Below, one piece after another: positions 253-63,348 of a DNA stretch of 64,000 bases. This DNA comes from a virus. Position numbers and translations under genes: made by a program. How positions within the stretch are numbered: the stretch's first letter is position 1; each line of letters opens with the position of its first letter. The DNA lies in the IMG/VR virus record IMGVR_UViG_3300023171_000009, positions 9,113 to 73,112 of that record; one strand, written 5' to 3'. The notes beneath the pieces were generated by a model that was given only the letters and a program-made list of their open reading frames with translations, was not told the origin of the DNA and ran no database searches.

Positions 253-307
253 AATTGAAATAATTGCAACTCAATCACTATAGCCAGCCATTTATAATAT
301 CAAGGGC

Positions 308-3175
308 TTATCCTCTTGAAACACTCTTTCTTCTTTCTGCTTTTTGCCGTCCGGTTTTGCTGTCCACTTTTTCTTTTTCAGTCCAGCTTACTCTCTGTCC
401 TAGTAAAACGGTATAAACTCCACAAATTGCATCCGCAACGTCCTTGGATGTAACTGGACCGCTTGACGGATGATCTATCTTACTAGGCTTCTTCTTGAAA
501 TCCGGAACTAACGCTAGCAACTCTTTAAATCCAATTTCATTGACTGGACAAGCCACACGTTTTTGATGAAGGGCGGATCTTAGTGCATCATAAGTTACCA
601 AATCTTCAACACTTATTTTATCGGTTTTAAAACCTTTACTGACAAGTATCTGCCTGGTGTCCACAGACTGGAAATTATCCATAGTTACAATCTGGATAGG
701 TATTTTCAAAACGTCTCTCAGATAATAAACCCAATGTCTTATGATATCGATATTAATTTGCCCGGACTTAGGTGGTTGAACGGCTAATGCAAAATCATAA
801 ACGACATACGGAAAGGACTCTTCCACAAGCTTTAAATTTCCATCAGAATCAATAGTTGATGATTGTATAGGAACAACATCAAGGACGAATCCGCATGCTA
901 TGCCTACCCGATCTTGTGATAAAGCCAAATCGATATGTAAAGCTCTTGGACATTCAGGCCATGGAGTGGCGTAATCATCAGTTACTTCCGGCATTCCATC
1001 ATCAAATAAAGTTACAGTTTGTTTCCATGGAGAAATCATTCCTAGGGCTTTCCAAGCTTTAGCCATATTCCAAACGTCTTCACGATCTTTAAAGTAGACG
1101 TTAGAACTTCTAGCGCTTCTTCCGCCAAAATCGCGAAGCGCCCCCTCCGGGTCTGTTATAAAATGTTGTTTATATCTTACAGGAACTTCCATTATCTCAG
1201 CTCCTTTTCTAGGAGTTTCATCTGTGGAAAGTATACGCGTCATCGCCCTTTCATCCCCTACTTGGACTTTGAATTTTTGCTCTGTTTCCAATGTGGAGTC
1301 AGGATAAACTTCCCAATGCGCCTTCTCCCAAATAAATACCTTATGAGTGTCCTCAGTATTATCAGCAGCTAATACTTCTTTTTTTCTAACTTCTGTAAAG
1401 TCTCCCGCATGTCCTTTGGAAGACACCATGCAAAACCTTCCTATATCGGAATCAGGGAAACGGCTTGCTCTACGGCGTATAAGCTTTTTATAAACTTCTT
1501 TAGCTTGGTCAAATTCCCCCGTCTCCTCTTTGGACCTTTTAGACTTCTCAACAAAAGTCATGAAATTTAACTCATCGACAATTGCCGATATAACGTCTTC
1601 ACCTAAAAATTTATCAGCACTTGCGGCACCATACATAATCATAAGATTATGAGGAAACAGCATCATTTCTTCTTTGCGACGATTATATGGGAATTGTTCT
1701 TTAAAGTAAGGGCAGCGTTTTATGATGTTTTTTAGCTTTCCGTAAGTTACGCGCTTAGCCAATGAATCTGTTTTATTCAAACATAAAACCATAACGGGAG
1801 AACCAGGAAGCATTCCTAGGTAGAGTTGAGGTTGTTTGAAAGTAGATAGGTTATATAGATCGTAAAGAGTAACAATTTGTGCTAGGGTCGTTTTTCCGCA
1901 GTTCCCTGTTATAAATATATTTCCCTCACGTCTTAACACTAGTAATCCGGTGTTTACCCTGAAACAATATTTAAAGCCATCTGTAGATGGAACTCTTAAT
2001 ATATCTGACTTAGGAGTTGCAGCCATACTAGTTAGTGCATTCTTAGCCTTATGCACTATGTAATCTGTCTTACCGTCATCGCGAAGGTAACCACGCAATG
2101 AGGCTCTTTGCCCTAAAGTCGAAAAAGCATATTGTATAAAATCAGCCGAATCTTTATTTCGAGTATAAAAGGTTTGATCGGTTACAGAACCATCCCATCT
2201 TAAGCATTCATCACATATAATAACTAATTGCTCAGAAGAAGCTTGCCAGAAAGTTTTAAACGATTTTACTCTTAAAGGAGCTTCGAAATAAAATTTAACG
2301 TAACCCTCCGCTCCTTTATGCTCTTCCCAAGGGATGCCCGAGTCTTTCAATAGTATTCTTGCTCTATGTATCTTGTCTGTGCGTTTTATGTTTACAGTGC
2401 ATGCGTGACTCATCCTAGAAAAAGAACCATCTGCGATCACCATAACCATAACTCTTAAATCTTCATCGGACAATTCTAGCCCTATGTAATCAGGCACTTT
2501 AAATGTAGTCTGAAAGGAGCCTCTGAATCCGTTAGTAGAAGCGTTGTGCATTAGGGCTACTTCCTTTGCTGACTTAAATAGCCAATTCTTTTTTGCCTTA
2601 TAATAAACACGATGATCGTCGCATAGCATTTGGTCTATGCCATACTTAGTCTTAAAATGCCACATTTCAGCACAAGGCAATTTTATGTATTCTTTAGGAA
2701 TAACATAGTTTATCTCTTGTGTTACCGGGTCATATTCTGCAACCCTCTCTCCAGCATAGCTAGATATTTTTCTCCATCCATCAGGAGTTAAATATTCAGT
2801 CTTACTATCTACACAGCCGATCCCGCCCATTAACAGCGCCTCCATGTATCCACCGTCAGCAATACTTACAGCGGCCTCTAATACTTTTGCAAATACGCCT
2901 TGCTGTGGCGTAGTTTTATTTGACTTATCGGTTACAACGTCAAGCCCTAAAAAATCCTTGTCCCGGACAAACTGTTCCATTGAAACAGGGCGATGGCTTC
3001 TCCCGATAACACTAGCAAAATTCCCCTTCGCTTTTTTTAAATCATCTATGAAATCTGTAAACGTGGGTATGCTAAAATTAGGATTAGCTAATACAAGTTC
3101 TGATATTGCTTGATTAAGTATATCAGCAGGAGCGTTTGCTATAGCTAGTAATTGAGATTCCGTAAGGACTGCCAT
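308..3175 (-). CDS. terL: Terminase large subunit (intein-containing)
   Basis: Walker A GGIG/CGKTT split by intein, Walker B IVDE, C-terminal RNase H-like nuclease (HIDLA, MDNFQS, KDVADA). Start moved to ATG 3175; the track's TTG start lies inside the 14-bp site. Confidence 0.92.
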   Translation of the reverse strand: MAVLTESQLLAIANAPADILNQAISELVLANPNFSIPTFTDFIDDLKKAKGNFASVIGRSHRPVSMEQFVRDKDFLGLDVVTDKSNKTTPQQGVFAKVLEAAVSIADGGYMEALLMGGIGCVDSKTEYLTPDGWRKISSYAGERVAEYDPVTQEINYVIPKEYIKLPCAEMWHFKTKYGIDQMLCDDHRVYYKAKKNWLFKSAKEVALMHNASTNGFRGSFQTTFKVPDYIGLELSDEDLRVMVMVIADGSFSRMSHACTVNIKRTDKIHRARILLKDSGIPWEEHKGAEGYVKFYFEAPLRVKSFKTFWQASSEQLVIICDECLRWDGSVTDQTFYTRNKDSADFIQYAFSTLGQRASLRGYLRDDGKTDYIVHKAKNALTSMAATPKSDILRVPSTDGFKYCFRVNTGLLVLRREGNIFITGNCGKTTLAQIVTLYDLYNLSTFKQPQLYLGMLPGSPVMVLCLNKTDSLAKRVTYGKLKNIIKRCPYFKEQFPYNRRKEEMMLFPHNLMIMYGAASADKFLGEDVISAIVDELNFMTFVEKSKRSKEETGEFDQAKEVYKKLIRRRASRFPDSDIGRFCMVSSKGHAGDFTEVRKKEVLAADNTEDTHKVFIWEKAHWEVYPDSTLETEQKFKVQVGDERAMTRILSTDETPRKGAEIMEVPVRYKQHFITDPEGALRDFGGRSARSSNVYFKDREDVWNMAKAWKALGMISPWKQTVTLFDDGMPEVTDDYATPWPECPRALHIDLALSQDRVGIACGFVLDVVPIQSSTIDSDGNLKLVEESFPYVVYDFALAVQPPKSGQINIDIIRHWVYYLRDVLKIPIQIVTMDNFQSVDTRQILVSKGFKTDKISVEDLVTYDALRSALHQKRVACPVNEIGFKELLALVPDFKKKPSKIDHPSSGPVTSKDVADAICGVYTVLLGQRVSWTEKEKVDSKTGRQKAERRKSVSRG
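1901..2815 (-). mobile_element. Intein with LAGLIDADG-type endonuclease, 305 aa
   Basis: Begins CVDSKTEYLTPDGW, ends GNIFITGN followed by extein Cys; internal VIADGSF and LRWDGSV blocks. Confidence 0.9.
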
Positions 3176-3191
3176 AAAATGAAATCGTTGC

Positions 3192-3565: not shown

Positions 3566-3669
3566 TCCTGCCCTTGTCTGCTCCACTCTAACGATAAAGA
3601 ATAAGTGAAGTAATAATTACTAAACAGTAGTAATTAAACAAACAGCATCACGTCGTGACAAGGACAGGA
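3566..3669 (-). ncRNA. Candidate structured intergenic RNA (multibranch)
   Basis: 13-bp closing stem TCCTGTCCTTGTC/GACAAGGGCAGGA (mismatch is G-U on minus strand); internal AATTACTA/TAGTAATT hairpin. Confidence 0.45.
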
Positions 3670-3675
3670 AATTGG

Positions 3676-7951: not shown

Positions 7952-8427
7952 GATGTTAATAAAGGGCAGGTTGTTAACTCGGGAATTATAGTTCCCTTGA
8001 GTGGTGGATATGAGATAAAATAAATAAATTTATTGGTGATTGGGATTTTACTTGATTTAATCAGCAGTCTCAACAATTCAAACCCGAAATCAAAATTTCC
8101 CCAATTCGCGGCAAACCATTGAGACAAGGACGGGTTAGGGCTTACGCTGTATCCGGGTAGATCAAATCTAGCTCCATAATTTTGATAAGCGTCAATGCCT
8201 GATAGCCTGTAAACATGACCGAGAGCTTTAAACAGATATCCGGTTAAGTAATCAATCTCAGTTTGGCTGTGCTCAGCTATGTATTTTGCAACAATTTCAC
8301 TTTCTGGCCCTTTAGAAAGCTTTGGGTGATAGTCTTTAACCAAGCCCGTGATCGGAGGCTTGAACTGTGGCCGGGGTTCCGGTCTTAAAATAACTTTCGA
8401 CGGTGGTTTTTTTATCTGGAATTTCAT
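7948..8427 (-). CDS. Hypothetical protein
   Basis: Start MKFQIKK. Confidence 0.6.
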   Translation of the reverse strand: MKFQIKKPPSKVILRPEPRPQFKPPITGLVKDYHPKLSKGPESEIVAKYIAEHSQTEIDYLTGYLFKALGHVYRLSGIDAYQNYGARFDLPGYSVSPNPSLSQWFAANWGNFDFGFELLRLLIKSSKIPITNKFIYFISYPPLKGTIIPELTTCPLLTS

Positions 8428-26215: not shown

Positions 26216-27430
26216 TTATTTTGCTTTTGCAGCCACTTTTTTAGCGGCTCCGGGGCGGGTAGCAGTAGCAGCCTTAGCTACAGGCTTGGTTCCGGCTTCA
26301 GAAGAACTAACAGCCAAGAAGGTATCAACAATTTTGAGCCAGATTTTACCATCCTTGTTAGGGGTTTCATCGGTAATACCTTCCTGTTCCTTCACCAAAG
26401 CAACAGCGCGGTTGACTAGCGCCTCTTCATCCGGCCCCATGGCAAAAAAGCTGAACTTTGTGCGAGCTTCGCGCGGTGAGTTTGTCGCGGTAGCGGCAGC
26501 TTCCCCATCCTCGGTTTCTTCCGCCACGCTGATATATTCCTTTTCCCGGATTTCGTCCTGAATATCGGCAACAGTATGCTTGGTATTTTTGGAGAATTCC
26601 ACCAAAGGAGCGATGTAATCTGTTAGCTCCTTGACCTTCATTCCCTTACTAGCAAGCACAACGCGGGCAAGTTCCTTAGCTTTTGGCCAACCAAGAGATA
26701 GGATTTCAGGGAACGCCTTAAGCAGAGGCTTAAGGTTCTGGACGATTTGCACCCAATACTGCGCGGTCCGGTATTTGATCCCAAGTTCTTGATCCACGAA
26801 AGCGGCGAATCCGCCTTTTTCGGCATACAGGGGAGCGCCGTTTTCGTCCAGAATAGAAGTATAGGATTTGTTAGCTTTGATAGCGACAAGAGCTAAACCG
26901 ATATCAAAATAGGTTTCGTTGGAACGATCCGCCAGCACGCGAACGGCTGCGATAATGTCGCCGCCCTGCTCGCTAATCAGGCCGTCAAGAGTCGGGGACA
27001 AAACAAGAGCTTTCCCTTTTCCCTTGACCTTTCCTTTTCCCTTGCCTTTAGCCTTGGCTTTAGGTGTAGTAGTGGCTTCTCCTTCAGCGGCTTCCTCCGA
27101 CGCTTCAACTTCGCCAGCGCCTTCTTCATCTTCCTCAGACGCGTAAGTTTCATTGAGGTAAGCTTGCTGCTCTTCGTTAGGCTCGACAAGCTCGTCGTGA
27201 CTAGCACAACCGATGCGGGCACCATCTTCGTTATCCTCAAGAGCGGAAACGTCGTAAAACTGAACGCCGTCAATTTCGTCAGAAAGTCCTGTAATAGTAA
27301 CATATTCGCCAGCCTTAAGAGGCTCCGGAATCTCGCCCTCCAGAACCATCACGTCGTCGACTTCATAGAGCACGATTTCAGGTTCTGATTTTTTTGGTGC
27401 GGGACGGGACGGGGTTTTTTTAGCAGCCAT
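26216..27430 (-). CDS. 404-aa acidic/basic DNA-binding-like protein, monocistronic
   Basis: Own promoter (27497-27524) and terminator; FAAFVDQELGIKYRTAQYWVQI helical DNA-binding-like segment; Lys/Ala-rich termini. Confidence 0.6.
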   Translation of the reverse strand: MAAKKTPSRPAPKKSEPEIVLYEVDDVMVLEGEIPEPLKAGEYVTITGLSDEIDGVQFYDVSALEDNEDGARIGCASHDELVEPNEEQQAYLNETYASEEDEEGAGEVEASEEAAEGEATTTPKAKAKGKGKGKVKGKGKALVLSPTLDGLISEQGGDIIAAVRVLADRSNETYFDIGLALVAIKANKSYTSILDENGAPLYAEKGGFAAFVDQELGIKYRTAQYWVQIVQNLKPLLKAFPEILSLGWPKAKELARVVLASKGMKVKELTDYIAPLVEFSKNTKHTVADIQDEIREKEYISVAEETEDGEAAATATNSPREARTKFSFFAMGPDEEALVNRAVALVKEQEGITDETPNKDGKIWLKIVDTFLAVSSSEAGTKPVAKAATATRPGAAKKVAAKAK

Positions 27431-27593
27431 GATGTTTTTGATTTGGGTTGGTTAGTTTATGTTATTGAATTTTAGCGCCTTTTCTGGCGACGGATTAGAT
27501 TACTTTATTCAAGGAGGATTGCAAGTCGTTTTATTCCCAAAGGTGAAATCATTGCAATATGTTAAATGTTATAAATAGGGTATTGACATATAC

Positions 27594-27786: not shown

Positions 27787-28392
27787 TCAAGTCGATTTTT
27801 GCAACGATTTCACTTTTTTGGGTTTATTTGGCTTTATCAGGCAATTTTTTACAGTTTCTATCTGAAAAAGTTGAAATTTTGGCGTCAAGCCTGCGGATAA
27901 CATGCTCCAAACTCTTGTCATTTGTGCCAAAATAAATGCATCCGCTAAATCATTGTCCTCCGTGTCATACCCAAACCAGTGTTTTACGTTTAACATAACC
28001 TCATCTTTATCCGCGTTTCCTATTCCTACAAAACTTTTGACGGCAGTAGGGGGAGCCTCAAAGTAATTACCTAGCTTTTCGTATAACTCCATTCGAACAA
28101 TCCCACCGATTTCAGCCATTTGCAGCTTTCTGGAGCCTAACGCTCTAATAGCGTAACCTTCAACTCCAGCATAATTAATTCCCGGTAACATTTCTCTCAC
28201 TGCATCGCGAATATATTGCCACCTTAAAGTGCCTTCCAGCCTATTTTTACCTTTACCCGGAATAACCACACGTTCAGTTATTTTAGGGCTTTTGCTTGAT
28301 AAATCCGTGCTAGGAACTTCTAAGACTATTAGGCCAGTGCGGTTCAAGGAAAGGTCAATCCCCAAATATTTGATAGGTTTGGAAAGCTTCAT
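27787..28392 (-). CDS. ruvC: RuvC-like Holliday junction resolvase
   Basis: YLGIDLS, VEGY, DNDLADAF. Confidence 0.85.
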   Translation of the reverse strand: MKLSKPIKYLGIDLSLNRTGLIVLEVPSTDLSSKSPKITERVVIPGKGKNRLEGTLRWQYIRDAVREMLPGINYAGVEGYAIRALGSRKLQMAEIGGIVRMELYEKLGNYFEAPPTAVKSFVGIGNADKDEVMLNVKHWFGYDTEDNDLADAFILAQMTRVWSMLSAGLTPKFQLFQIETVKNCLIKPNKPKKVKSLQKST

Positions 28393-29252
28393 GGCGGTAA
28401 AGTGAAACATCCTTGGCATTGATCGCAACCTTTTGCACGGGACGACTCGTTAGTATTACAAATTCTTGTTGGAAGTTTAGAAGTATCAAAAACGGATGCA
28501 GCCTGTCGTTTTAAAGAATCAGCCAAGGTGCGATAAATTGAGTCTTTACTTAAATCCAATTCAAAATATTTATACGGAGAATTGAACCTGTATTCTTTCC
28601 TTGCATAAATATTCAAACCATAATCAGCCACGGGAAAAGGCAATTTATCATCAGGTAATAATACTCCATAAAGTGCTAATTGCGTAGCATGACTACCTAT
28701 CGCCTTTTTTAAAGATGAAAATCCTTTATTAGTCTTGTTGCCTGAATCACTATCAGTAATTGATTTAATCTCAATTGGAACAATGATCCCGTTTTCTACG
28801 ATGGCAAAATCCATGCTTCCTGTTATTCTCCATGTCCAGTTTTCAATAACATATTCTGAATAATTGTTGAATGGAGTATCACAACACGCGGAAATCATTC
28901 CGGGTTTATAAACGTTATCGTAGTAACTTTTGCCACATCGGCAACGCCATCGACCAAAACAATTTTCAGGGCCGTAGCCGTCTATCAAGGAGCGTCTAAT
29001 GTGTCGTTCAACTTCACGGCCAATTGCCCATACTAGCCTGTCCGCGCCAGTGGGTTTCCATGTTCTAGCTCCATGTTGCAGGTATTTTAGAGATAGAGCA
29101 TAAGCGCGGGCGCACCAGTCAACTAATGTGCTAACATGGACAAGGTCAGGGTTAGTGCGTATTTCCTCCGGAGCCGAATCTTGCGCCCACAAAACATTAC
29201 CAATATCGCGCCTTAGATTTAAAGCGTTTTCTAGGTTAGACGATAAGCTCAT
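28389..29252 (-). CDS. PD-(D/E)XK exonuclease, Cas4/AddB-like
   Basis: GSMDF, IEIKS, QLALY, Cys pattern WCAR...RIC...CDQC. Confidence 0.75.
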   Translation of the reverse strand: MSLSSNLENALNLRRDIGNVLWAQDSAPEEIRTNPDLVHVSTLVDWCARAYALSLKYLQHGARTWKPTGADRLVWAIGREVERHIRRSLIDGYGPENCFGRWRCRCGKSYYDNVYKPGMISACCDTPFNNYSEYVIENWTWRITGSMDFAIVENGIIVPIEIKSITDSDSGNKTNKGFSSLKKAIGSHATQLALYGVLLPDDKLPFPVADYGLNIYARKEYRFNSPYKYFELDLSKDSIYRTLADSLKRQAASVFDTSKLPTRICNTNESSRAKGCDQCQGCFTLPP

Positions 29253-34594: not shown

Positions 34595-35638
34595 TTAGTT
34601 TGCCATTATCGAATGTTCCATCATTTGTGAAATCGTTGCAGATTCTAACTGGTCGGGATCGGTCAAAGGTTCATTGCTTTCCGCATTAACCGGCCATGGT
34701 GGAATAAATAATGGATGTCCTTTTAACAGGTCGACTACGCCTTTTACCCGCCTTCCTGATTCAGTGGTATACCCATTGATACCTTTCTTTCCGGCTTCAT
34801 CGTTATCATAAAATGCATAAACAGGTAAACCCCAATCAACTAAAGTTTCAGCCTGCCACTGACTTAGCCGGGCTCCAAGAGTGGCTATAGGATGGCCAAA
34901 TCTATCGGCCCCGACTTCATACATTGAAGCATATGCAAAAAGACCTTCCACCAACAAGATAGGCTTTTTAGTTTCAGAAGGTATCAAGTCAGCGCCTAAA
35001 AGATTGAATTCTTTATGAAGTCCTAGCATGTCCTGAATCTTAACTTTGCTGTCATGACGAATTGAGCGACCACTAAAACCAAATAATTCACCTTTCCGAT
35101 TCTTAACAGGAAACATTATTCTTTTGTGGCTGATAACATCCTGCCCCAATGTTCCAGAATAACATAAGCCTAACATTGTGGCCGTCGATTCGGAAATAAG
35201 TCTCTCCTTCAAATATTGCCTAGCTTCAGGAACTTCCCAAGCCGGTTTATACATTCCTTTTATTTGTCCGGGAGATATAGGCTCTGGCCTTTCTACCTGA
35301 GTAAATTCGCCAAACTCAAAGTTTTGAACAACTTCAGATTCCGCAAGCATTATATCATGAACTAAAGAAATATAGTCAAGTCGACGATACCCCCCTAACA
35401 TAGTGGCAAGGTCAACTATGCTGCCTGAGCGACCACACACGTAACAATTAAAACCTGAACGCTTTTTATTATCAGCTTTTACATGAAATTTATTACCTTG
35501 TGCCCTTAAATCCCCTTTTGATTTGTGTCCTCCAAATGGAGCAAAAGGGCATTTACCATACATCCAACCGTCATCGCGGGGAGCACCTATTTGTATTTCA
35601 AGGAGAGCTAAAATTGGCCTTAATTTTGATATATGCAT
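34595..35638 (-). CDS. dnaG: DNA primase (Zn-finger plus TOPRIM)
   Basis: CPF..H..CYVCG; LVEG; YDNDEAG. Confidence 0.88.
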   Translation of the reverse strand: MHISKLRPILALLEIQIGAPRDDGWMYGKCPFAPFGGHKSKGDLRAQGNKFHVKADNKKRSGFNCYVCGRSGSIVDLATMLGGYRRLDYISLVHDIMLAESEVVQNFEFGEFTQVERPEPISPGQIKGMYKPAWEVPEARQYLKERLISESTATMLGLCYSGTLGQDVISHKRIMFPVKNRKGELFGFSGRSIRHDSKVKIQDMLGLHKEFNLLGADLIPSETKKPILLVEGLFAYASMYEVGADRFGHPIATLGARLSQWQAETLVDWGLPVYAFYDNDEAGKKGINGYTTESGRRVKGVVDLLKGHPLFIPPWPVNAESNEPLTDPDQLESATISQMMEHSIMAN

Positions 35639-35655
35639 AAGTGAAATCGTTGCAA

Positions 35656-39932: not shown

Positions 39933-40478
39933 TTATTGCAACGATTTCACTACTTCAACATTGCTAGTATAGAAAGACCGGAAATCCTTAGAAAACCAAG
40001 GTAGCGTTTCATCAGTAGTCCGAATTATAACCGTTTTATCGTATTGATTGATCATCATTCTAACAAAAGATTCTATTTTATGTGTCTGCCCTTGAGTATA
40101 GGGCGAGGCTTTACCTGTTTCAGCGCTGCAAAAAGAAAGCAACGTTAGTATCTCACAATTGTAGATTGGAGATAGTTTTTCAGCGTCATTATTTTCCAAA
40201 TAATGGAGCATCATGGCCGTTTCTACGGCAAATAAGTCTTTTCTCAATAGAGCCAATGCCGCAGAAAACACTAAGGCTCCGATATCATTAGGGCCTTCAA
40301 TTATCAGATTAGTTTCATCTGCAATTATCTGATTAATCCTATCATATGGTTTAAGCATACTAGGAAAATCTTTAGAAATTCTGAAGTCCGCATATCTTGC
40401 CCCTACTCCACAACTGAGCAAGACATTTCTAATCTGAACAGGAGTCATTGCCATAACGCTAATTACTAAAATTATCAA
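39933..40478 (-). CDS. Degenerate DnaC/IstB-like helicase loader
   Basis: GVGARYADF N-terminus and position between initiator and DnaB; Walker motifs eroded. Confidence 0.5.
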   Translation of the reverse strand: MIILVISVMAMTPVQIRNVLLSCGVGARYADFRISKDFPSMLKPYDRINQIIADETNLIIEGPNDIGALVFSAALALLRKDLFAVETAMMLHYLENNDAEKLSPIYNCEILTLLSFCSAETGKASPYTQGQTHKIESFVRMMINQYDKTVIIRTTDETLPWFSKDFRSFYTSNVEVVKSLQ

Positions 40479-41925
40479 ATATAGGTATTTGCTGGAATAT
40501 TATATTTCCCTCATCATCATACTCTGTCGGAGGCAAATCTTCAGCTAGTTTTTCCAACAATTGCCGCTCTTGTTCCCGACGTTCTTTGTAGGTTACAAGG
40601 GGACTGACGGGGTTGTAAAATTCTTGGACGTTGGTTTTCCGTTCCTCTTTTCTAACGGCTTTGGCGTCTCTCGGGCTAAGTTTACCCGTGGCTTCAAACC
40701 GCCGCATTCTCAGCGCGTCACGCTTATCTTTAACCACTTCGCGGTATTCTTCCGCCTTCTCCTTCACGATAGCGCTTCTATTTTTGTAGTCACGGAAGCC
40801 TGTAAAGCATTGCACAAATAGCCCCAGCGAGGGTTGCACCGCTTGATGCAATTTCATGGAAGATGTTATTTGCGCCCATTGGGTTATGGAATCCGTGATC
40901 AATTCCAGAAAGTCTTCAATGGTTCCGCCTCCGGCTTTCCATTTTGTTATTAGGCATTTCATCTGCCCTCTTTGTTTTTTGCCCCATGCCATGACGGGAG
41001 AAAGCCGCGCTCCATTTTGAGCCGTGACATATTCCTTTTCAAGTGACTGCCACAATTGCGCGGCTTGTTCGTAGTCGCTCAATTCTTTTTGCGGTCGGGC
41101 GGTCGGAATTTTCCCATACTCAAACTGGTATTTGCTAGGGGGCGCGGAACATTCCTCCTTATCTTCAAGGGTTTCAATCACCGGGGTAATTATCCTTCTA
41201 TTCAAGGGCAGCTTAAATCTTCTCCTTGCCGGAATCGCGGCGCTTGCGTCGCAGTTCTTATTTAAATTATCTTCTCCTTTATAAACATCCTCTTTATACA
41301 GGTCGATCTTCGGCCCACTAACAGACTGAACTTCGGCCCCTTCGTTTAAGCTAGAGGGTTGATCGTCGTCCCTTCCAGTAATACGAAATACACGCTCTTT
41401 GTTGGATTTTTCATGTTGTTCATCCCACAGCGTTTCATATTTCAAATCCTCGGGATTATATTGTTTTTTAGCGCGGGCTCTTTTAAGCATATCGTTGTAA
41501 AGAAAATTGTGATTAGGTTCAAAACTGTGAGTCAGCCGTCCTGTATATTTGCTGCGCTTCCAACTTATGAATAACAACTTGTTCCCCTTGTTGTCATAAG
41601 TTGAGTCTAGTTCTTTTATTTTAAGCTTAATTGTGGATAAGGCATACGGTAAGCCGTAGTTAGCCTTTACTCCATCTTTGCTGGTAACGCCGTCTAATAG
41701 ATGACGCATAGGGATTACTTCAGAATCTTTTCCGTAACCCCATACCCTGTTTAAAATGGCTCTAAGAACTGCGCATAAAGTGGAGTCCCGGCAATTTTCT
41801 GTAAATGCCTCCATGCACTTATCCCGCTTCCTCATATACTCACCCGGAGTAACGGGCTTTAAATTTTCAAGACGGGTGGTTGACTTTTTATAAGGTTCTT
41901 GTATGATACACATAATATATAGCAT
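40459..41925 (-). CDS. Putative replication initiator (N-terminal winged HTH)
   Basis: VLRAILNRVWGYGKDSEVIPMRHLLDG; synteny with loader and helicase. Confidence 0.55.
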   Translation of the reverse strand: MLYIMCIIQEPYKKSTTRLENLKPVTPGEYMRKRDKCMEAFTENCRDSTLCAVLRAILNRVWGYGKDSEVIPMRHLLDGVTSKDGVKANYGLPYALSTIKLKIKELDSTYDNKGNKLLFISWKRSKYTGRLTHSFEPNHNFLYNDMLKRARAKKQYNPEDLKYETLWDEQHEKSNKERVFRITGRDDDQPSSLNEGAEVQSVSGPKIDLYKEDVYKGEDNLNKNCDASAAIPARRRFKLPLNRRIITPVIETLEDKEECSAPPSKYQFEYGKIPTARPQKELSDYEQAAQLWQSLEKEYVTAQNGARLSPVMAWGKKQRGQMKCLITKWKAGGGTIEDFLELITDSITQWAQITSSMKLHQAVQPSLGLFVQCFTGFRDYKNRSAIVKEKAEEYREVVKDKRDALRMRRFEATGKLSPRDAKAVRKEERKTNVQEFYNPVSPLVTYKERREQERQLLEKLAEDLPPTEYDDEGNIIFQQIPIFDNFSN

Positions 41926-42337: not shown

Positions 42338-42338
42338 A

Positions 42339-43066: not shown

Positions 43067-43366
43067 TTAAACCTTCCTTGCCTTAATCTCATCTTCTGAT
43101 AGCTCTTCGATACCTGCGTTTTCTGTAGTTGCGCTATCGATTTGTTTTTCAAGATCATCCAATTTAACATGGACCGCTAGCCTATCTTTTCGACTATTTT
43201 CTAATGTTATCATCATGAGCATAGATGTTAAAACGCTGATTCCATAATCGAAAACATCAAAATTCACAAAAGGCATGATTATGCACCACAACAAAAATAT
43301 ACTAAATGAAGCAGGACGGCTTAGCGCTTTTTCAAACGCGTCCGCTACCTTTGAAAAGTGGGACAT
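43067..43366 (-). CDS. Low-affinity iron permease (Fet4)-like membrane protein
   Basis: Two TMs then RKDRLAVHVKLDDL...GIEELSEDE. Confidence 0.65.
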   Translation of the reverse strand: MSHFSKVADAFEKALSRPASFSIFLLWCIIMPFVNFDVFDYGISVLTSMLMMITLENSRKDRLAVHVKLDDLEKQIDSATTENAGIEELSEDEIKARKV

Positions 43367-43613
43367 AACTATTGATGTGTGAAGTTCTATCAACGTTTAG
43401 GTATCCAGCATCTTCTAACTCTTTAATTGCTTTAGTTAGGGTAGGACGTGAGGAATTTGCATTCTTTGCAAGGGACGACAAAGATTCTTGAACCGGGGAC
43501 ATACTGCCATCGTATTGATTGCAGATATAAGACAACAATTTAAAAGCACTTGGTTGAACTTTCGTTATAACCAATCGCAAAAATAAATCAGTAGGGGTAT
43601 TAAGATTACTCAT
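43332..43613 (-). CDS. Winged HTH protein
   Basis: SLSSLAKNANSSRPTLTKAIKELEDAGYLNV. Confidence 0.85.
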   Translation of the reverse strand: MSNLNTPTDLFLRLVITKVQPSAFKLLSYICNQYDGSMSPVQESLSSLAKNANSSRPTLTKAIKELEDAGYLNVDRTSHINSYVPLFKGSGRV

Positions 43614-44586: not shown

Positions 44587-44587
44587 A

Positions 44588-44773
44588 TTATTTAGCTTTG
44601 TTAGTTACTTTTGCGGCTGGTTTATTAAAGCCAGCTTGCTCTTTTCTCTTAAGCTTTCCTTTCAGAGCATCTTCAAAAGGCTTTGTATCGCTGGCGCACT
44701 TGTTGTCTTTATAGCCCTGAGCTTCTATGACAACGGCTCCGTTAGGTTTGATAGTAATTTCGATTGCTTCCAT
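44588..44773 (-). CDS. DUF2997-like protein
   Basis: IEITIKPNGAVVIEAQGYKDNKCASDTKPFEDAL. Confidence 0.75.
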   Translation of the reverse strand: MEAIEITIKPNGAVVIEAQGYKDNKCASDTKPFEDALKGKLKRKEQAGFNKPAAKVTNKAK

Positions 44774-44776
44774 AAA

Positions 44777-45241: not shown

Positions 45242-45441
45242 GATTTAGTTGTTTGTTTACTATGCTTGACGGCAGCGTCCATAGCATCGTAAGAACTGTT
45301 GTAACTATCTATAGGGATAAAAAATCCACCTTCGTCTCTATAGGTTAGGTGATATTTTTTGTTAAAATACGCTATTTTATACGGCTCGCATCGTAATAAA
45401 GGCGGAGAGTATTTTGTTGCTGGTATATTTACCCATTTCAT
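45238..45441 (-). CDS. Hypothetical protein (paralog of 43929-44180)
   Basis: MKWVNIPAT. Confidence 0.6.
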   Translation of the reverse strand: MKWVNIPATKYSPPLLRCEPYKIAYFNKKYHLTYRDEGGFFIPIDSYNSSYDAMDAAVKHSKQTTKS

Positions 45442-45442
45442 A

Positions 45443-46081
45443 TTAGCGCCTTCCTATTTTGATAACTGGTTTTGCAATGATTACTTGATTAGTATTTTTA
45501 GCGTTAGCAATAGTAGTAATAGCGGTCATTTCCACATCACGAATAGACTCTTTTTCTGGCTCCAATATATGCTCATCGAACGCTTTTGCAACCATTCCGG
45601 AATCCGCAAATTGTATAAAATGACGGGGAATGACTACTCCGGCGGCAGCAACTTGATCAACGGTTAGAACATCGTAATTACCGCGTATGTAAGCGAATAG
45701 ATTCAAGGAACGGTCTTGCGCGGTTAGCTTGAGTCTACGCTCTCTCAAAGCCGCTTTATCGCGGATTTGAATATACATACTAGCCATTACTTCAATATTA
45801 CCTTTTATGGATCTTTTAGCAAAGAACTTGATAATCTGCCCCTCCGGTATCATAAAACGGGCACTAGTCCATTCACCGCAAAGAGTTTTAAGCCCTCTAA
45901 AAGCCGGTCCTTTTTCAGCGTTACTTCTACTAATATTGCCGTGCTTATATTGCGCAGCCATATCAAGAATAGTCTCTTTTAAGCCGATGTCCTCAGACTT
46001 AGGGCACCAATAAGCTTGTAGAGAGGCGGTTTTGCCGTCGTAATTTTCGCTTCCTGTTAGTATATCGATTGGTAGTCTCAT
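45443..46081 (-). CDS. Hypothetical protein in AAA module
   Basis: Coupled to ATPase. Confidence 0.7.
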   Translation of the reverse strand: MRLPIDILTGSENYDGKTASLQAYWCPKSEDIGLKETILDMAAQYKHGNISRSNAEKGPAFRGLKTLCGEWTSARFMIPEGQIIKFFAKRSIKGNIEVMASMYIQIRDKAALRERRLKLTAQDRSLNLFAYIRGNYDVLTVDQVAAAGVVIPRHFIQFADSGMVAKAFDEHILEPEKESIRDVEMTAITTIANAKNTNQVIIAKPVIKIGRR

Positions 46082-47700
46082 CGTTTAGTGATTGTTGGAC
46101 GTGCTAACGGTCTAGATGGCGGTAAAGGTCTAGGCTTTGCTGCAACGATTTCATTTTTATCCTCTTTTAAGGTAGAGGCATTCACCGCATGCATATCGCC
46201 CCATTTACGCATGGCTTCAAATCGTTCTTTGTGTGAATTGCTTATAGGATTAATAGCTTTAGCGTGCTGTAACAATAGGTCAGAAGTAGGCAGTTTACCA
46301 TTGTTAAGGCAAAAAGTGATAGTATCAACCACGCATTTTTCAATCTCAGCACCAATAAAGCCAGTAGTGGCTAGATCAAATGCATTCATGGGCACACTAG
46401 GCGCAGTATATCCCCGTTTTTTAAGGTGGATTTTAAGGATGTCCCATCGGTCTTGAACATTAGGAATATCCACAAAAAACTTTTCATCAAGACGCCCTGG
46501 CCGTAAAAGCTCAATGGGAATTTGAGTTACATCATTTGCGGTCAAAACGAAAAACGCGCCTTCGTTCATTTCTTGCATGTTAAATAACAATTGCTGAAGG
46601 ACGCGGCTAGATGCTCCACTGTCCCCGTTAGCGCCAGAAGATAAACCTGCCTTATCGATTTCATCAATCCATATAATGCATTGACCTAATGCTTTCAATG
46701 TTTTGAAAGTAGCTGTGGTTTTAGCTTCTGATTCCCCTACTATCCCGCCAAAACACATGCCGACATCAAACCTAATCAAGGGCAGGCTTAGCTTAGCTGC
46801 GATGGCTTTTGCGATAAGGCTTTTACCGTTTCCAGGCGGTCCCACTACTAGGACACCCTTCATAGGGTCGGCTCCTTTGGCAATAGCTGCGGATTCTAGT
46901 CTGATTTTATTGAAGTCTAGCCACTGTTTTAAGCCGTGTAAACCGCCTACTGTATCCATGTTAACTGGCGGGTAAAGTTCCAAAGTTTCAGATTTTCGAA
47001 TGATTTCCTCCTTGGACTGAAGAACATCACTAACTAAAATTCCTATATCCGTTGACGTGATAGCGTCGATATTTTTAGCGGCAGCACGCGAAAAGGCTTT
47101 CTCTGCTTCAAATTGTGTCATTCCAGCGCCAGAATGCGAAAGTGCAACGATTTCACTTGAGGGTAAATCACGAGATTGCCCTATCTTATCAAGCGCTATT
47201 TGGGCCATAGCGGCAACATCGGGTAACTCCAAATCAATGATTGTTATCTCCGGCTCAATCTCTACTGGAATTTTACAGGCTTCCGGGATTACAAAAACCA
47301 ACGTATGCCCGGTTGATGGGAATATATGGCAGTATTCGCTAATTATCGCCTGAGCGGTAGGCGAGTCAAAATGCGGATGCGGATGCGTCATTACTGCAAT
47401 TGCATTATCCGCAAACTTTTCCACAGCCAGCAAAGCAGCTATAAACCCATTATCTGGCTCATAATCTGTATACTTCTCCCAAACACTTATCAAAACGCCA
47501 TGGGCATCTGGTTTACCGTATTTCAACACCTCCCATCCCTTAGCTGCATCCCAGCGGTAAAACGGTTGTGGCTTTTGTTCTCCATTAGCTGCAAACGCTT
47601 GAAGCAAGTTTTGAGTTCTGCGAGCCTCCCTTGTCCGGGTAGCAATAACACCCACTCTAGCGATACGGGATAAGTTGAATTCAGATAAGTAATCAGACAT
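46078..47700 (-). CDS. AAA+ ATPase, Ycf46-like
   Basis: GPPGNGKS, WIDEIDK, TAN, LLRPGRLD; degenerate N-terminal AAA domain. Confidence 0.9.
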   Translation of the reverse strand: MSDYLSEFNLSRIARVGVIATRTREARRTQNLLQAFAANGEQKPQPFYRWDAAKGWEVLKYGKPDAHGVLISVWEKYTDYEPDNGFIAALLAVEKFADNAIAVMTHPHPHFDSPTAQAIISEYCHIFPSTGHTLVFVIPEACKIPVEIEPEITIIDLELPDVAAMAQIALDKIGQSRDLPSSEIVALSHSGAGMTQFEAEKAFSRAAAKNIDAITSTDIGILVSDVLQSKEEIIRKSETLELYPPVNMDTVGGLHGLKQWLDFNKIRLESAAIAKGADPMKGVLVVGPPGNGKSLIAKAIAAKLSLPLIRFDVGMCFGGIVGESEAKTTATFKTLKALGQCIIWIDEIDKAGLSSGANGDSGASSRVLQQLLFNMQEMNEGAFFVLTANDVTQIPIELLRPGRLDEKFFVDIPNVQDRWDILKIHLKKRGYTAPSVPMNAFDLATTGFIGAEIEKCVVDTITFCLNNGKLPTSDLLLQHAKAINPISNSHKERFEAMRKWGDMHAVNASTLKEDKNEIVAAKPRPLPPSRPLARPTITKR

Positions 47701-48922: not shown

Positions 48923-48978
48923 GGGAGGACAATGGACCATAAAAAAGCATTCGCAAGCCTTTTTTCGAAATTTTGCAA

Positions 48979-59213: not shown

Positions 59214-59513
59214 TCACTTTAGCGGATACACCCGCCCTTGCTGAGAGTAGTAATTCATAGCGCCGGAAATCACCTGCTTACCTACATATATTCCTATTCC
59301 CCCTAAGATATCTCCTACCACTTGCGCTTTACTTTCCTTCTTCAGCCTAACTAATGGAATATTACCACTTGTTTGAACCGACGCAAGCTCTTTTTCCCTA
59401 ACTTTTAAGGTTTCAACGCCGTTCTTATCATATAGGCTAGCAATAGGTGAATTATCAGAACTTGCACAACCTATGTGGAGAAGTGAAATCGTTGCAATAA
59501 ATAAAGCTTTCAT
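59214..59513 (-). CDS. Lipoprotein
   Basis: MKALFIATISLLHIG-C. Confidence 0.65.
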   Translation of the reverse strand: MKALFIATISLLHIGCASSDNSPIASLYDKNGVETLKVREKELASVQTSGNIPLVRLKKESKAQVVGDILGGIGIYVGKQVISGAMNYYSQQGRVYPLK

Positions 59514-59514
59514 A

Positions 59515-60942
59515 CTAGGTAGTCGTTACGGACCATCCTTTACCAGTCGCTACAGTAGTAGAAGCTCCGGCACCGGGGTTACCTTTAACGTTGATGTTTT
59601 TAGTATCGCCTGTAGGAGAAGCCCCAACCGCATTATACAAAGCCAATATTGTTGCAGATTGCAAAGCGTTATCATTTAGTTTCAAGGACGACACAAGCCC
59701 TGTGTTAGCCTCGGGGAAATTAGTAATAGTTTTGAAAGAACCGCACCCATAAAGCTCCAATCGTGTAATACTTCTTAGGTCACTTCCATCAAACGCCTGT
59801 AACGTTGTTATATTTCCTCCCACTAATTCCGCTAAGCTAAATAATCCGGAACCGCCAAAGAATATCAAATGCGTTGAGGATATGTTTAGCGCTGTTAGGG
59901 CAGGCATCCCCGCGCCGCTGAAGAAAACTAGACTAGGCGTATTTTGTAGTTCCAACAAGCCAAGACGATTAAATCCCGCTCCGCTAAAGGTCACTAGCTG
60001 CGTATTCGTGGCAGTCAAAATAAGAAGACTGGAAAGACCCGTCCCTTCCAAAACAGTAATGAGCGTGTTAGACAGATTCAGATTGATTAGCTTTTTCAAG
60101 TTAGAAAGATCAACAGAAGTAATAGGGTTAGTTGATAGATTTAAGGTAGTTAAATCGTCAAAGCCCGTTCCTTTAAATGAAGTTAAGCTATTAGAAGATG
60201 CGTTAAGGGTAGTCAGTCCTTTAGCATTAAATCCGGATATGCCGGTAACAACCATTCCCGGAATTTGCAAATTTGTAATCACCCCCGCCGCAGCCCATAC
60301 ACGAATTATCTTTACGCTGCTACTGGTGGTCGTCTTGCTAGCGTCAGTATTACTTGTATGCTGCGTGATTGTATTATCCCACCATTGAACACAGTAAGCG
60401 CCAAGATTCGTAAGACAGCGGAACAGAACGCTTCCGGTATCTTTGGTGGTAGTAAACTCAATATAACTTCGGACAGGAGGCTTAGAAGTTATAAATCGGT
60501 TTAAAGAACTAGCTGTTAACTCTATACTCTCCATGTATTTTTCAAGAGTGATAGGAGCACCAATTCCATCGATTAAAACGGCAGTCCCGCCACTAAATCC
60601 GGGTTTGATGGAAACCAAGCCCTCTAAAGCCGCATTAACCAAAGTAGTGCGGTATTTCGCTGATAAATTTACAGGAATATTAATAACCTTAACATCTTCT
60701 TCCCGTGTAAGGTTAACGATCTTTTCGTTATAAGACAAGGGCAGCGTTAAGGTGTCCGTTCCATCGGAAACTCTCTGTTCATCTTTTAGCAAAGATGCCG
60801 GAGCCTGTTTATCAATTCCTCCTTGTGCTATGTGTAACATGTCCCCCGGATTTACTACTGTAGCGACGGGAAAAGAAATAATTTGGTTAGGTCCGGGCAT
60901 AAAAAGAGTTTTAAAAAAGTTAACTAAAGGGGGTAAGTTCAT
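59515..60942 (-). CDS. Leucine-rich-repeat protein in tail locus
   Basis: About ten ~21-aa LRRs (LTTLNLSTNPITSVDLSNLKK...); start at 60942 or 60900. Confidence 0.85.
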   Translation of the reverse strand: MNLPPLVNFFKTLFMPGPNQIISFPVATVVNPGDMLHIAQGGIDKQAPASLLKDEQRVSDGTDTLTLPLSYNEKIVNLTREEDVKVINIPVNLSAKYRTTLVNAALEGLVSIKPGFSGGTAVLIDGIGAPITLEKYMESIELTASSLNRFITSKPPVRSYIEFTTTKDTGSVLFRCLTNLGAYCVQWWDNTITQHTSNTDASKTTTSSSVKIIRVWAAAGVITNLQIPGMVVTGISGFNAKGLTTLNASSNSLTSFKGTGFDDLTTLNLSTNPITSVDLSNLKKLINLNLSNTLITVLEGTGLSSLLILTATNTQLVTFSGAGFNRLGLLELQNTPSLVFFSGAGMPALTALNISSTHLIFFGGSGLFSLAELVGGNITTLQAFDGSDLRSITRLELYGCGSFKTITNFPEANTGLVSSLKLNDNALQSATILALYNAVGASPTGDTKNINVKGNPGAGASTTVATGKGWSVTTT

Positions 60943-61054
60943 AAAAACAATATAACGGATAGAACGAAATATTGCAACGATTTCACATATCAAATCTTAG
61001 ATAGATATTGCCGACGGTCAGGCCTCTGGTGACGGACTCGGGATGCTCATGGTG

Positions 61055-62431
61055 TTAGAACGGCACCGGGATTTCCGCCCGGACTTTGACGGCCCGCGCG
61101 GCATACCCGGCGTCGGAGTAGTGGACGCCGTCGGTCCATGCGGCGGCGTTGTTAGGCGTCCAGACCGGCCCCACCATGGTGTATCCCAGGAAGGGGTCGG
61201 CACCCAAATCCACAAGATAATGCACCCTGCCTCCGCTCACTGCATTGGCTCTTAGGTAGGCGTTAAAGGCGTCTAACTCAGCCGCTTGTGCGTTAGTGCG
61301 GCTTAGTGCTGAGACGGTATATGCCACGCGCTTGCCAGTTCCTGTGCCGATGTTAGCGGCAATGGCTGCGTCCCAATATTGCTCCCAGCGCGCAATCATT
61401 GTCGCCGCAGTCGCTCCTGCGGTGTCGTCATTTACGGCAGCTAGAAAAAATAGCCAGTCGGCGGGGCCAAGACCATCCCATGCGGCAACTCGGCTCGCGT
61501 AGCACTCATCTATCCGTCTCCCGCTTTGTCGGTAGACGCGGGGCCGCCAGTTGGCGGCAACATTCATCCGGGTCAGTTCGTTTTTAAGCAAGGTGTCACC
61601 CTGCCCAAACATGGTGCTGTCCCCATGGTGGGTGACCCGACCAACAATGCTCCCCGTTGGCAGGTAAACTACGCCGTAGGTGGTCTGCGCATAAGTCAGG
61701 GCGGCGGTGATTTCCGGGGCAGTCAGCACCCGATCCCAGATTATTGTCTCAATATGCGGATTGCTGAAGGTTTGGGGCAGTTCAATATCTGTCCGGACTA
61801 CGGCGGCACACGCGGAAAATGTTGCCGTATTCGCCACGTCGTTCACGTAAATGTTCAGCGCGGAGGCCCCGAAGGTTACCAGAATGGCGAATGGCCTGCC
61901 TCCGCTCGGGACTTTGAGGGCTGATGATTTGAGCGTCACGCCATCAAACACCGTCACCACCCCGGTTCCGCCGTAAAGAGACACGCTGACAGCCCCTCCG
62001 CCTGCCCGGAAAATCTGGGTCGATGAAGCGGCTCCATTCTCTTGGTTGATCCGGCCAATCAACAAGAGCGTCTGATTTCGCTGGTCGAAGTTCCTTGTTA
62101 GAAGCAACGAGTTGGCGTGAAAAGCATTCACCTCGTTCGAGGAAAGCACCTCACCGTCTGTTGCATTCCAGGTTGGTCCGAAGCCGCTAATGGAAAGCGG
62201 GGTGCCTGCGTGCTGATCAGGCCACAGGTTCACTGTAGCCAGATTAGCGGCCCCTGTCAGGCTTGACGCCTTAAACACGCTGGTCATGCCGGGAACCGTC
62301 GCCGACAGGGCGGACGATGCCGAAAACCGGGTCTGCGCCAGCGCGGGGGATGCCAGCGTGAGCCCTGGACCTTGCGCGGCGGCAGGCAGCATAGCGCCCA
62401 GCAACGCCATAATGATTCGGAGAATATTCAT
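61055..62431 (-). CDS. Secreted-type protein with beta-rich N-domain and SGNH/GDSL hydrolase domain
   Basis: Signal MNILRIIMALLGAMLPAAAQ; GDS, AAVND, DGVH. Confidence 0.8.
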   Translation of the reverse strand: MNILRIIMALLGAMLPAAAQGPGLTLASPALAQTRFSASSALSATVPGMTSVFKASSLTGAANLATVNLWPDQHAGTPLSISGFGPTWNATDGEVLSSNEVNAFHANSLLLTRNFDQRNQTLLLIGRINQENGAASSTQIFRAGGGAVSVSLYGGTGVVTVFDGVTLKSSALKVPSGGRPFAILVTFGASALNIYVNDVANTATFSACAAVVRTDIELPQTFSNPHIETIIWDRVLTAPEITAALTYAQTTYGVVYLPTGSIVGRVTHHGDSTMFGQGDTLLKNELTRMNVAANWRPRVYRQSGRRIDECYASRVAAWDGLGPADWLFFLAAVNDDTAGATAATMIARWEQYWDAAIAANIGTGTGKRVAYTVSALSRTNAQAAELDAFNAYLRANAVSGGRVHYLVDLGADPFLGYTMVGPVWTPNNAAAWTDGVHYSDAGYAARAVKVRAEIPVPF

Positions 62432-62436
62432 GGCGG

Positions 62437-63348
62437 TTAGGGCTCGATGGCTGAGTAAACCCGGCAGGCTGCGTCCGTTGTTCCGAGCGGGACGATGGTG
62501 ATGGTGGCGGTCTTCCCCGCCGCAAGGCTGACTGGCAGGGCAGAGCCTTGAGGCTTCCAGGCCGGCCATGTGAGAGTGAAGGTCGATACCCCGCCCGTGA
62601 GGTAAAGAGTTAGCGGCTTTCCTGACGCCAGATTATTCGTCGTAAACGTGGTGTTGCCCGCCAAAGTATAGGTTTTCCCCGGATCGCCCGCGAAATCCAA
62701 TACTGTCCCGCCGGTCAGCGCTGAAATTGTATACGTATTATTCCCGATGGTTGTTCCCGCGATGGTGCCGCCCGTGATCGCAACGGCGGCGGCGGATTGG
62801 GTGGCTATGGTGCCGGTCCCGGCGGCGGCGCGGAGGGCGGCGGCATCAGCCAGCGCCAGCACGGCGCGACCGTAACTGGTGGTGGATAGCGCCGCGATGG
62901 CGGTTAAGTCGGAATCAAGCGGCTGGGACGCGGCAATAGCGGCGGCCTGCGCGGCTGCTATTGCCGTGGCCTGCGCGGTGCTGACCGGCTTATTCGCGTC
63001 AGTGGTGGCGTCCAGTATGCCTAATTTCGTGAAGTCCGCAGGAGCTAAAAGACCAGCATTTGTTCCTGTAGCCAAGGACAGCGTAACTCCTGTTCCGTTA
63101 GAATTGGCCATTACGTAATTCGTAGGTGAAGCCGTGCCTGTCAGGTTAGAGGCAGTTAGCGTCCTCATTTCCGTAGGCGTTATCTGCCTCGCCCTTGCAC
63201 CAGAAGCCTGACTGGCATCATAAACGGAAAAGTAATCCGCTGTTAGATCAAGGGCGGATGCTGTTGTTACAGGAGCCGGATAAATAGGCTCATCGGATTT
63301 TGCAATCGTTGCAAAAAGAAGTGTGAGTAGGAATAGTGTGTATTTCAT
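62437..63348 (-). CDS. Tail-fibre-like protein with N-terminal signal peptide
   Basis: DANKPVSTAQ, QPLDSDLTAIAAL, GTIATQ..AVAITGG fibre motifs; MKYTLFLLTLLFATIA. Confidence 0.7.
   Translation of the reverse strand: MKYTLFLLTLLFATIAKSDEPIYPAPVTTASALDLTADYFSVYDASQASGARARQITPTEMRTLTASNLTGTASPTNYVMANSNGTGVTLSLATGTNAGLLAPADFTKLGILDATTDANKPVSTAQATAIAAAQAAAIAASQPLDSDLTAIAALSTTSYGRAVLALADAAALRAAAGTGTIATQSAAAVAITGGTIAGTTIGNNTYTISALTGGTVLDFAGDPGKTYTLAGNTTFTTNNLASGKPLTLYLTGGVSTFTLTWPAWKPQGSALPVSLAAGKTATITIVPLGTTDAACRVYSAIEP

Follow-up and report, generated by a model that had tools for sequence, protein, structure and literature searches.

The phage record IMGVR_UViG_3300023171_000009 carries one short DNA word many times over, at intervals that are far more even than random. 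The record, from an uncultured phage of a leaf-litter metagenome, has 98,476 bp, and the window analyzed here consists of its bases 9113-73112 (64,000 nucleotides; the coordinates given below are those of the window). The array is best read as a selected, genome-wide signal that acts at the DNA level as a set of protein-binding sites. On balance, the phage probably encodes a dimeric, sequence-specific DNA-binding protein for which the copies are docking sites; this protein would belong to a conserved replication/recombination module and is most likely the 404-amino-acid (aa) protein encoded at 26216-27430.

Number, form and placement of the repeated word

The core of the word, TGCAACGATTTCA, was found 28 times in exact form in the window, 17 times on the plus strand and 11 times on the minus strand, while dinucleotide shuffles produced 0.00 copies. 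The relaxed form, TGMAANNNTTKCA (TGMAA-N3-TTKCA), was present 47 times, or once per 1.36 kb, when 0.81 copies were expected (maximum, 3). A first-pass annotation of the same DNA had reported 28 exact copies and about 46 copies in all, one per approximately 1.4 kb, and the recount agreed with these figures. The complete record includes 42 exact copies, one of which falls within a short end duplication of the assembly, and 74 copies with two mismatches or fewer, 42 on the plus strand and 32 on the minus strand. The real genes of the phage are all on the minus strand and the word is on both strands, so the occurrence of the two orientations was also confirmed. The annotation had suggested codon-preserving shuffles as a check, and the intragenic counts were far above them. 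Called genes contain 41 relaxed and 28 exact copies, compared to 5.3 and 0.64 after shuffling synonymous codons and to 1.05 and 0.013 after shuffling the order of the codons.

Alignment of all copies extended the word to an asymmetric consensus of about 20 bp, tTTGCAACGATTTCA[C/A]TTTt, with T-rich flanks that keep the same strand in either orientation of the site. The word of this phage consists of a TGCAAC half and a TGAAAT half separated by a 1-nt center, and the form TGAAA-N3-TTTCA was not found among the 47 relaxed copies. Therefore, the relaxed 5-3-5 pattern described earlier holds, but its interpretation as a simple dyad does not, since the word is about 20 bp long and truly asymmetric. 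This asymmetry implies that the reader no longer reads both halves identically.

About 60% of the sites are located within 30 nt of gene ends, compared to 13% of random positions, and the remaining sites are intragenic and occupy several frames, as had been claimed. The peptides that the annotation had noticed were recovered as well; copies within genes encode EIVA, KSLQ and ATIS/QRFH-type peptides, depending on the frame. When the site lies in one orientation, its TGA is often used as a stop codon or its A/GTG as a start codon. A site in the opposite orientation ends 2-6 nt ahead of an ATG or comes after the T-run of a terminator. At 42026-42614 there are two overlapping open reading frames (ORFs), the first of which (42339-42614) has only a start with a P-loop/Walker A motif, and a site copy at 42342 falls exactly at the overlap. 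The two ORFs may represent a single ATPase gene that was broken by a frameshift or that undergoes a programmed shift.

The evenness of the spacing was absent from the first account. The coefficient of variation (CV) of the gaps between sites was 0.52, whereas random points gave 0.98 and a null model with 60% of its points on gene ends gave 1.04. The largest gap between sites was 3.7 kb, compared to 7.2 kb in the null model. A GC-rich stretch of the tail-fibre region, 60985-63301, extends for 2.3 kb without a copy of the site and fits recently acquired DNA that is still devoid of sites.

The preference for gene borders raises the question of whether an array read by a phage protein acts mainly as a set of transcription roadblocks or insulators, in a stoperator- or KorB-like control of the single direction of transcription. 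Stoperators and KorB operators are known to work in this way and, besides the 60% of sites near gene ends, there is a site upstream of the candidate reader gene, and three of the four strict terminator hairpins that were found have a site within 46 nt. However, with only four such hairpins, linkage to terminators accounts for very few copies. Both orientations are used on a genome with one-way transcription, about 40% of the sites are deep within genes, including conserved in-frame ones, and insulation has no need of even spacing. In addition, a tyrosine integrase was not found in a family search of the genome record (89% complete as estimated by CheckV), which gives no indication of a lysogenic state that the sites would silence. 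Promoter function does not help this explanation either. A TANNNT box was found at 16-18 nt for four of the 56 TTGCAA hexamers (7%), which equals the background (6%), and an interpretation of the sites as sigma-70 promoters was rejected. We consider it unlikely that roadblocks are the main function of the array.

Relatives of the phage and conservation of site positions

Close DNA relatives were not found by megablast against phage records, a 15-mer scan of IMG/VR returned single chance matches only, and a search with the AAA ATPase detected no relative in IMG/VR. The closest relative is a 97,377-bp contig binned with a Chitinophagaceae metagenome-assembled genome (MAG), which was reached through the AAA ATPase at 45% identity and is syntenic with this phage across 67 genes. 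Its word is the perfect palindrome TTTGCAAC-W-GTTGCAAA (TTGCAAC-W-GTTGCAA), present as 38 exact 13-mers, a number that rises to 62-69 with looser patterns. The 7-Mb MAG contains 35 exact 15-mers of this word, every one of them on the phage contig, and the 11-bp core was about 220-fold denser there than on the other contigs of the MAG. The sites are phage-specific in this MAG and are not sites of the host genome. This confinement speaks against the titration of a host regulator, one of the options listed in the first-pass annotation.

The phage was mapped onto the relative through the orthologous genes, which permitted the comparison of 47 mappable sites. The relative has one of its own sites within 30 nt of 17 of them, when 1.9 were expected (maximum, 6 in 300 trials), and within 60 nt of 22, when 3.8 were expected. 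The matched positions include the PolA/primase junction, the N-terminus of PolA, the gap upstream of dnaB and the sheath/tube junction. Matches within genes, such as those in the primase and the AAA ATPase, consist of each phage's own word written in the same codons and the same frame, as ATIS or EIVA here and ATVA in the relative. Thus, the conservation in relatives that the annotation had suggested examining was found in the form of sister words at orthologous spots, changed in concert. As judged from the aligned genes, the word is rewritten site by site while the positions are kept. This is the outcome predicted for an altered reader specificity, and it counts against an origin in a mobile element or a mutational artefact. 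Since orthologous positions are shared although the word differs, the sites and their reader appear to have co-evolved.

Other phages that share a module consisting of AAA ATPase, DUF1257, DUF2997, DnaB, PolA, primase, helicase, UvsX-like protein, resolvase, exonuclease and RuvC-like protein also have arrays. The sister words are TGMAAC-YR-GTTGCA in Aeromonas phage HJ05 (23 copies), TGCAAA-YR-TTTGCA in Agrobacterium phage JP1 (33 copies), TGCAA-RCGY-TTGCA in Pseudomonas phage SM1 (30 copies) and TGCAAC-NN-GTTGCA in Rhizobium phage L338C (47 copies), and sister forms are found in several metagenomic contigs with the module. The plan of these words, and of the word of the 97-kb relative, is TGCAA-N3/4-TTGCA. 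Spacing was over-even in six phages (gap CV, 0.36-0.68), and 43-60% of the sites were at gene ends in the phages that share the module. Four relatives in PolA only (L092, L093, L100 and L101) have neither the candidate reader gene nor the sites, but they are a weak control because they share nothing else with this phage. Searches of the literature for this word and the sister words as strings returned only unrelated primers and operators, and a paper on a Rhodobacter phage mentions no motif. The block at 44588-47700, which encodes the AAA ATPase (SpoVK/Ycf46-like), a 212-aa protein, DUF1257 and DUF2997, is conserved across the phage clade and has homologues in cyanobacteria.

The shape of some sister words is reminiscent of LacI/GalR-family operators, which the phages could have copied from their hosts (PurR, CcpA or Cra type) as a means of sensing or titrating the regulator. 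The 14-bp forms of JP1, HJ05, SM1 and L105 fit the operator shape TGNAANCGNTTNCA, and the JP1 core, GCAAACGTTTGC, is the PurR/MalR box of the operator papers. However, the form found in this phage and in its closest relative has 13 bp and lacks the central CG, the same core is present in phages of very different hosts, and the other 6.9 Mb of the MAG contain practically no copies of the word of the relative. The LacI helix-turn-helix (HTH) domain (PF00356) was not found in the five phages searched, a result that fits a host-encoded reader but leaves the covariation with a phage gene, described below, unexplained. We regard this explanation as extremely improbable.

Alternatively, the sites might be recognized by an enzyme that nicks or cuts DNA site-specifically or modifies its bases, as in T5-type localized nicks or motif-directed modification. 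Long exact sites, asymmetric ones included, are typical of homing-type nucleases, the phage is rich in nucleases and resolvases, and a methyltransferase match is present. On the other hand, cleavage by a dimer would turn the palindromic sites of the relatives into double-strand breaks, the sites are carried by both strands, unlike T5 nicks, and no enzyme is linked to them. An enzymatic target is, in our estimate, very improbable.

The candidate reader and its possible role

The structural modules of these phages differ (myovirus or siphovirus tails), and for this reason the reader is expected in the shared replication/recombination module. Most of the other core proteins have evident roles: PolA, DnaB, primase, helicase, UvsX-like recombinase, gp32-like zinc single-stranded DNA-binding protein (SSB), exonuclease and two resolvases. 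The gp32-like assignment concerns a 378-aa protein (32983-34119) that was considered as the reader and dropped. It gave nothing significant in sequence and profile searches of Pfam and PDB, but has invariant His/Cys/Cys/Cys residues spaced like those of the zinc subdomain of T4 gp32 and is probably the single-strand DNA-binding protein of the phage. Four HTH proteins had been put forward as readers in the first-pass annotation, and only the one encoded at 26216-27430 is conserved in all the compared phages and has a predicted ParB/KorB/Noc-like fold. The others lack such conservation. The protein encoded at 25390-26166 has a homologue only in the closest relative, and that encoded at 43332-43613 is an unlikely reader because the five compared phages yielded no homologue of it. 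The products of 26216-27430 and 25390-26166 showed no similarity to each other and, consequently, a heterodimer of paralogues is not indicated.

The 404-aa protein has a predicted central ParB/KorB/Noc-like HTH domain (approximately residues 140-320), followed by a predicted C-terminal dimerization domain and a Lys/Ala-rich (AKK-rich) tail. Each of six phages has one gene of this family (alignment A3), located directly downstream of the RuvC-like gene wherever flanking DNA was available. In the cultured phages, the orthologues are at 71796-73586 (HJ05), 59354-60619 (JP1), 44202-45551 (SM1) and 59759-61150 (L338C) of the respective genomes. No Pfam family was found for the protein, and profile searches of PDB returned nothing significant for its family. 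An exhaustive search carried out with the domain only, the tails being of low complexity, identified about 195 clusters of homologues, all with the same architecture. The AlphaFold2 model of the central domain (predicted local distance difference test score [pLDDT], 90) was matched to six DNA-binding domains of the ParB family over 100-126 residues: ParB-parS (Z 7.5), Spo0J (6.7), KorB-operator (6.6), VirB (5.6), and SopB and P1 ParB (5.1). Leads from the ESM Atlas were DUF3102/HTH_ParB. A homodimer modeled through residues 321-375 scored 0.44, compared to 0.23 for the best control, with a pLDDT of 74 and at least 80% of contacts shared between runs. Of the proteins solved as pairs, 21 of 30 attained that mark, compared to none of the 23 solved as single chains. 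The ParB_N CTPase domain (PF02195) was absent from the whole genome, and family searches of the genome gave no match to ParA, to ParB at the sequence level or to DUF3102.

The link between gene and site was assessed in 48 IMG/VR loci picked solely by the presence of the candidate reader gene (narrower alignment A4), with 65 viral contigs as controls. The density of TGCAA-N3/4-TTGCA was 1.57 per 10 kb in the loci and 0.12 in the controls, a 13-fold difference, and at least two copies were found in 24 of the 48 loci and in none of the 65 controls. Divergent recognition helices are accompanied by divergent palindromes (GTGTTAC-TT-GTAACAC, TGAAA-N4-TTTCA and TTCGA-N3-TCGAA), and the phages with the most similar recognition helices have the same type of site. 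The spacing, 3 or 4 nt, tracks the residue that follows the conserved Tyr of the helix; a W or Y at this position is paired with 3-nt spacing in four of five cases. Based on these comparisons and on the models, the 404-aa protein is the best candidate for the reader, although not a proven one.

Several observations weigh against this assignment. The scores of the structural matches are modest for an all-helical domain (Z 5-7.5) and lower than that of the Rubisco factor Raf1 (Z 9.2), and the Foldseek search, in which Noc ranked first by probability, gave E-values of about 1. Because of these scores, the ParB-like fold is a lead rather than a proof. Some loci with the gene, such as L135, have no enriched palindrome. 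Furthermore, co-occurrence and covariation of gene and site are confounded by phylogeny because the gene always accompanies the whole replication module, and the reader could be any of the other proteins of the core instead. Finally, a homodimer leaves unexplained the presence of one exact asymmetric word in 42 of the 74 sites.

One such core protein is the Rep_O-like putative initiator encoded at 40459-41925, in which case the sites would be dispersed starts of replication or priming, about one Okazaki-fragment length apart. Initiators of the lambda O type bind as dimers to dyad sites, the 488-aa protein resembles Rep_O/HTH_36, the sites accompany the replication module, and their spacing of 1.3-3.6 kb on both strands would suit lagging-strand priming. 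However, known DnaG-type primases read trinucleotides, and by BLAST the initiator is conserved only in this phage and its closest relative. Its gene also holds an unrelated repeat cluster of its own, as lambda ori does; at 41156-41339 there are short direct repeats (two each of a 19-mer, a 16-mer with an internal dyad and an 11-mer), putative iterons that resemble an iteron-type origin inside an initiator gene, as in lambda. We find it improbable that the array is read by this initiator or another core protein.

If the 404-aa protein is the reader, it would be a ParB/KorB/Noc-like HTH protein without the ParB CTPase domain, with a C-terminal dimer domain and basic Lys/Ala-rich tails, found in a clade that comprises a large group of 80-110 kb phages. 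A dimer would be nucleated at each site, and the basic tails or oligomerization would spread the contact onto the adjacent DNA; one site per 1-3 kb would therefore cover the whole chromosome. The likeliest purpose would be to mark or organize the phage chromosome apart from host DNA, for replication-recombination, packaging or protection. A chromosome-wide function is favored because of the even coverage, the ParB/Noc/KorB-like nature of the candidate and its basic tails. Blocking of transcription at gene borders may be a by-product with a secondary role. More tentatively, the system could be viewed as a "phage chromatin", in which a CTPase-less ParB-fold dimer with histone-like tails uses 25-75 evenly spaced sites to coat or organize the chromosome as self across a multi-host clade of 80-110 kb phages, with a specificity code between reader and site and a site that has become asymmetric in this phage; we consider this complete picture possible but doubtful.

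Arrays of this type are a general feature of a wide clade, some members of which (phages of Aeromonas, Agrobacterium, Pseudomonas and Rhizobium) are cultured and tractable. What reads the whole phage chromosome, and why, is now a directly testable question. If the reader coats or marks phage DNA, the answer bears on the biology of replication compartments, on self/non-self discrimination during degradation of host DNA and on the evasion of defenses. In addition, the pairs of sites and readers would make up a naturally occurring collection of DNA-binding specificities that are orthogonal to one another.

Coordinates of the sites and of the related genes are listed in Table 1. The one-mismatch copy in the gap upstream of the candidate reader gene suggests possible autoregulation of this gene.

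Table 1. Sites of the array and genes related to it, in window coordinates.
Feature	Position	Strand	Remarks
Array of 47 TGMAA-N3-TTKCA sites (28 exact TGCAACGATTTCA)	256..63313	both	extends past the window on both sides
Site starts, part 1	256, 3180, 5698, 7344, 8287, 10085, 11646, 12065, 14465, 18181, 19137, 20651, 20773, 21775, 22721, 23942
Site starts, part 2	24646, 25373, 26135, 27544, 27800, 29261, 31029, 32703, 34628, 35642, 37721, 38437, 39937, 42012, 42342, 44327
Site starts, part 3	46141, 47143, 48417, 48974, 49363, 50002, 50519, 50986, 53647, 55046, 56545, 57484, 59484, 60973, 63301
Position-conserved sites	38437, 37721, 39937, 57484		PolA N-terminus; inside PolA; upstream of dnaB; sheath/tube junction
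Intragenic site, primase gene	34628..34640	-	relative's own site at orthologous codons (ATIS here, ATVA in relative)
Intragenic site near 3' end of AAA ATPase gene	46141..46153	+	orthologous site in relative, same frame (EIVA here, ATVA there)
Site at PolA stop/primase start junction	35642..35654	-	same junction occupied in relative
One-mismatch site copy	27544..27556	-	in 163-nt gap upstream of candidate reader gene, ~20 nt before TTGCAA -35-like hexamer
Candidate reader, 404-aa protein (P0121)	26216..27430	-	acidic N-terminal part, KGKGKGK stretch, predicted HTH, predicted dimer domain, tail
RuvC-like resolvase gene	27787..28428	-	synteny anchor of the reader gene in the recombination module (UvsX-like, exonuclease, second resolvase)
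93-aa HTH_36 protein	43332..43613	-
488-aa Rep_O/HTH_36-like putative replication initiator	40459..41925	-	repeat cluster inside

Other features of the genome were noted during the analysis. Shine-Dalgarno boxes are missing from the gene starts, the leaders of which are A/C-rich, and the promoters look like the classical TTGACA-N17-TATACT. A second motif, CCGTCCTTGTC, which the first-pass annotation had listed as CAAGGGCRG, is strand-polar and occurs at about 22400-22433, 3640-3675 and 8000-8100, and also outside the window. The copy near 22400 has a TATACT 17 nt after a TTGTCA, and the motif looks like the extended -35 region of a sigma-70-type class of phage promoters. The gaps at 48941-48978 and 25277-25389 share a promoter-like block composed of TTGCG, about 5 nt, and TTTTTTA-N-GTCCATTGT, and a AAATTTCGAAAAAAGG box comes after the site near 11660, 12080 and 48974; the block and the box may represent a second promoter class. 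Positions ~23-180 at the start of the record recur in its final ~155 nt; therefore, the assembly is circular or terminally redundant.

Comparison with known systems

Dispersed operator-like repeats have rarely been reported in lytic phages. The first-pass annotation had pointed to the stoperators of mycobacteriophage L5 (Cluster A), which resemble this array in that there are dozens of asymmetric 13-bp sites at junctions and within genes. Stoperators follow the direction of transcription and serve as binding sites for the immunity repressor that a temperate phage encodes (PMC4351075). In contrast, the sites of this phage are divided between the strands (42 plus, 32 minus) although all the genes are on the minus strand. 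An L5-type system is argued against by the two orientations, the many intragenic copies, the lack of a promoter link and the failure to find a tyrosine integrase, and membership is not supported.

The best DNA-binding structural matches of the candidate reader belong to the systems KorB-OB of RK2, Noc-NBS (Noc-binding sites) of B. subtilis, ParB-parS, VirB and P1 ParB box A. All of them use dispersed inverted repeats of 13-16 bp with a center of 0-2 nt that are read by dimeric ParB-fold HTH proteins; the number of such sites is 12 for KorB (OB) and about 70 for Noc (NBS). The palindromic sites of 13-16 bp in the relatives and the C-terminal dimerization modeled for the candidate reader are in line with these systems. 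The differences are that here the sites, about 70, are on a phage chromosome, and that neither a ParB_N CTPase domain nor a ParA, sequence-level ParB or DUF3102 match accompanies them. The half-site of VirB and P1 box A is RWGAAAT, with a 1-nt spacer (PMC6410309). It equals the GTGAAAT half of the word of this phage, which has a 1-nt spacer too, but the TGAAAT halves face the opposite way from those in VirB sites. The likeness to LacI/GalR operators (PurR box, cre) is limited to the 14-bp relatives that fit TGNAANCGNTTNCA and does not extend to the 13-bp site without central CG or to a LacI HTH in the five phages searched. T5-type nick sites are strand-specific and the present sites are on both strands.

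The closest printed analogue is the 17-bp dyad TGTTCGG-N3-CCGAACA of Cluster O mycobacteriophages, which is present in more than 30 copies genome-wide in an apparently non-temperate phage (Cresawn et al. 2015, PMC4351075). Many of those repeats are intergenic, about one third are in coding DNA, they are not tied to promoters, and they are predicted to bind a dimeric protein, their reader and function being unknown (PMC4351075). The present array is alike in its more than 30 genome-wide copies, partly in coding DNA and not linked to promoters, in a phage where a tyrosine integrase was not found; the dyad is perfect in the relatives of this phage and imperfect in the phage itself. The word and the phage lineage are unrelated to those of Cluster O, and weak tblastn matches of the AAA ATPase in 69-kb mycobacteriophages are the only homology link of that kind. 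Compared to Cluster O, the array described here adds even spacing, orthologous positions that are kept while the word changes, an occurrence in several bacterial host groups, an asymmetric word, and a link to one conserved protein that is named as the candidate reader.

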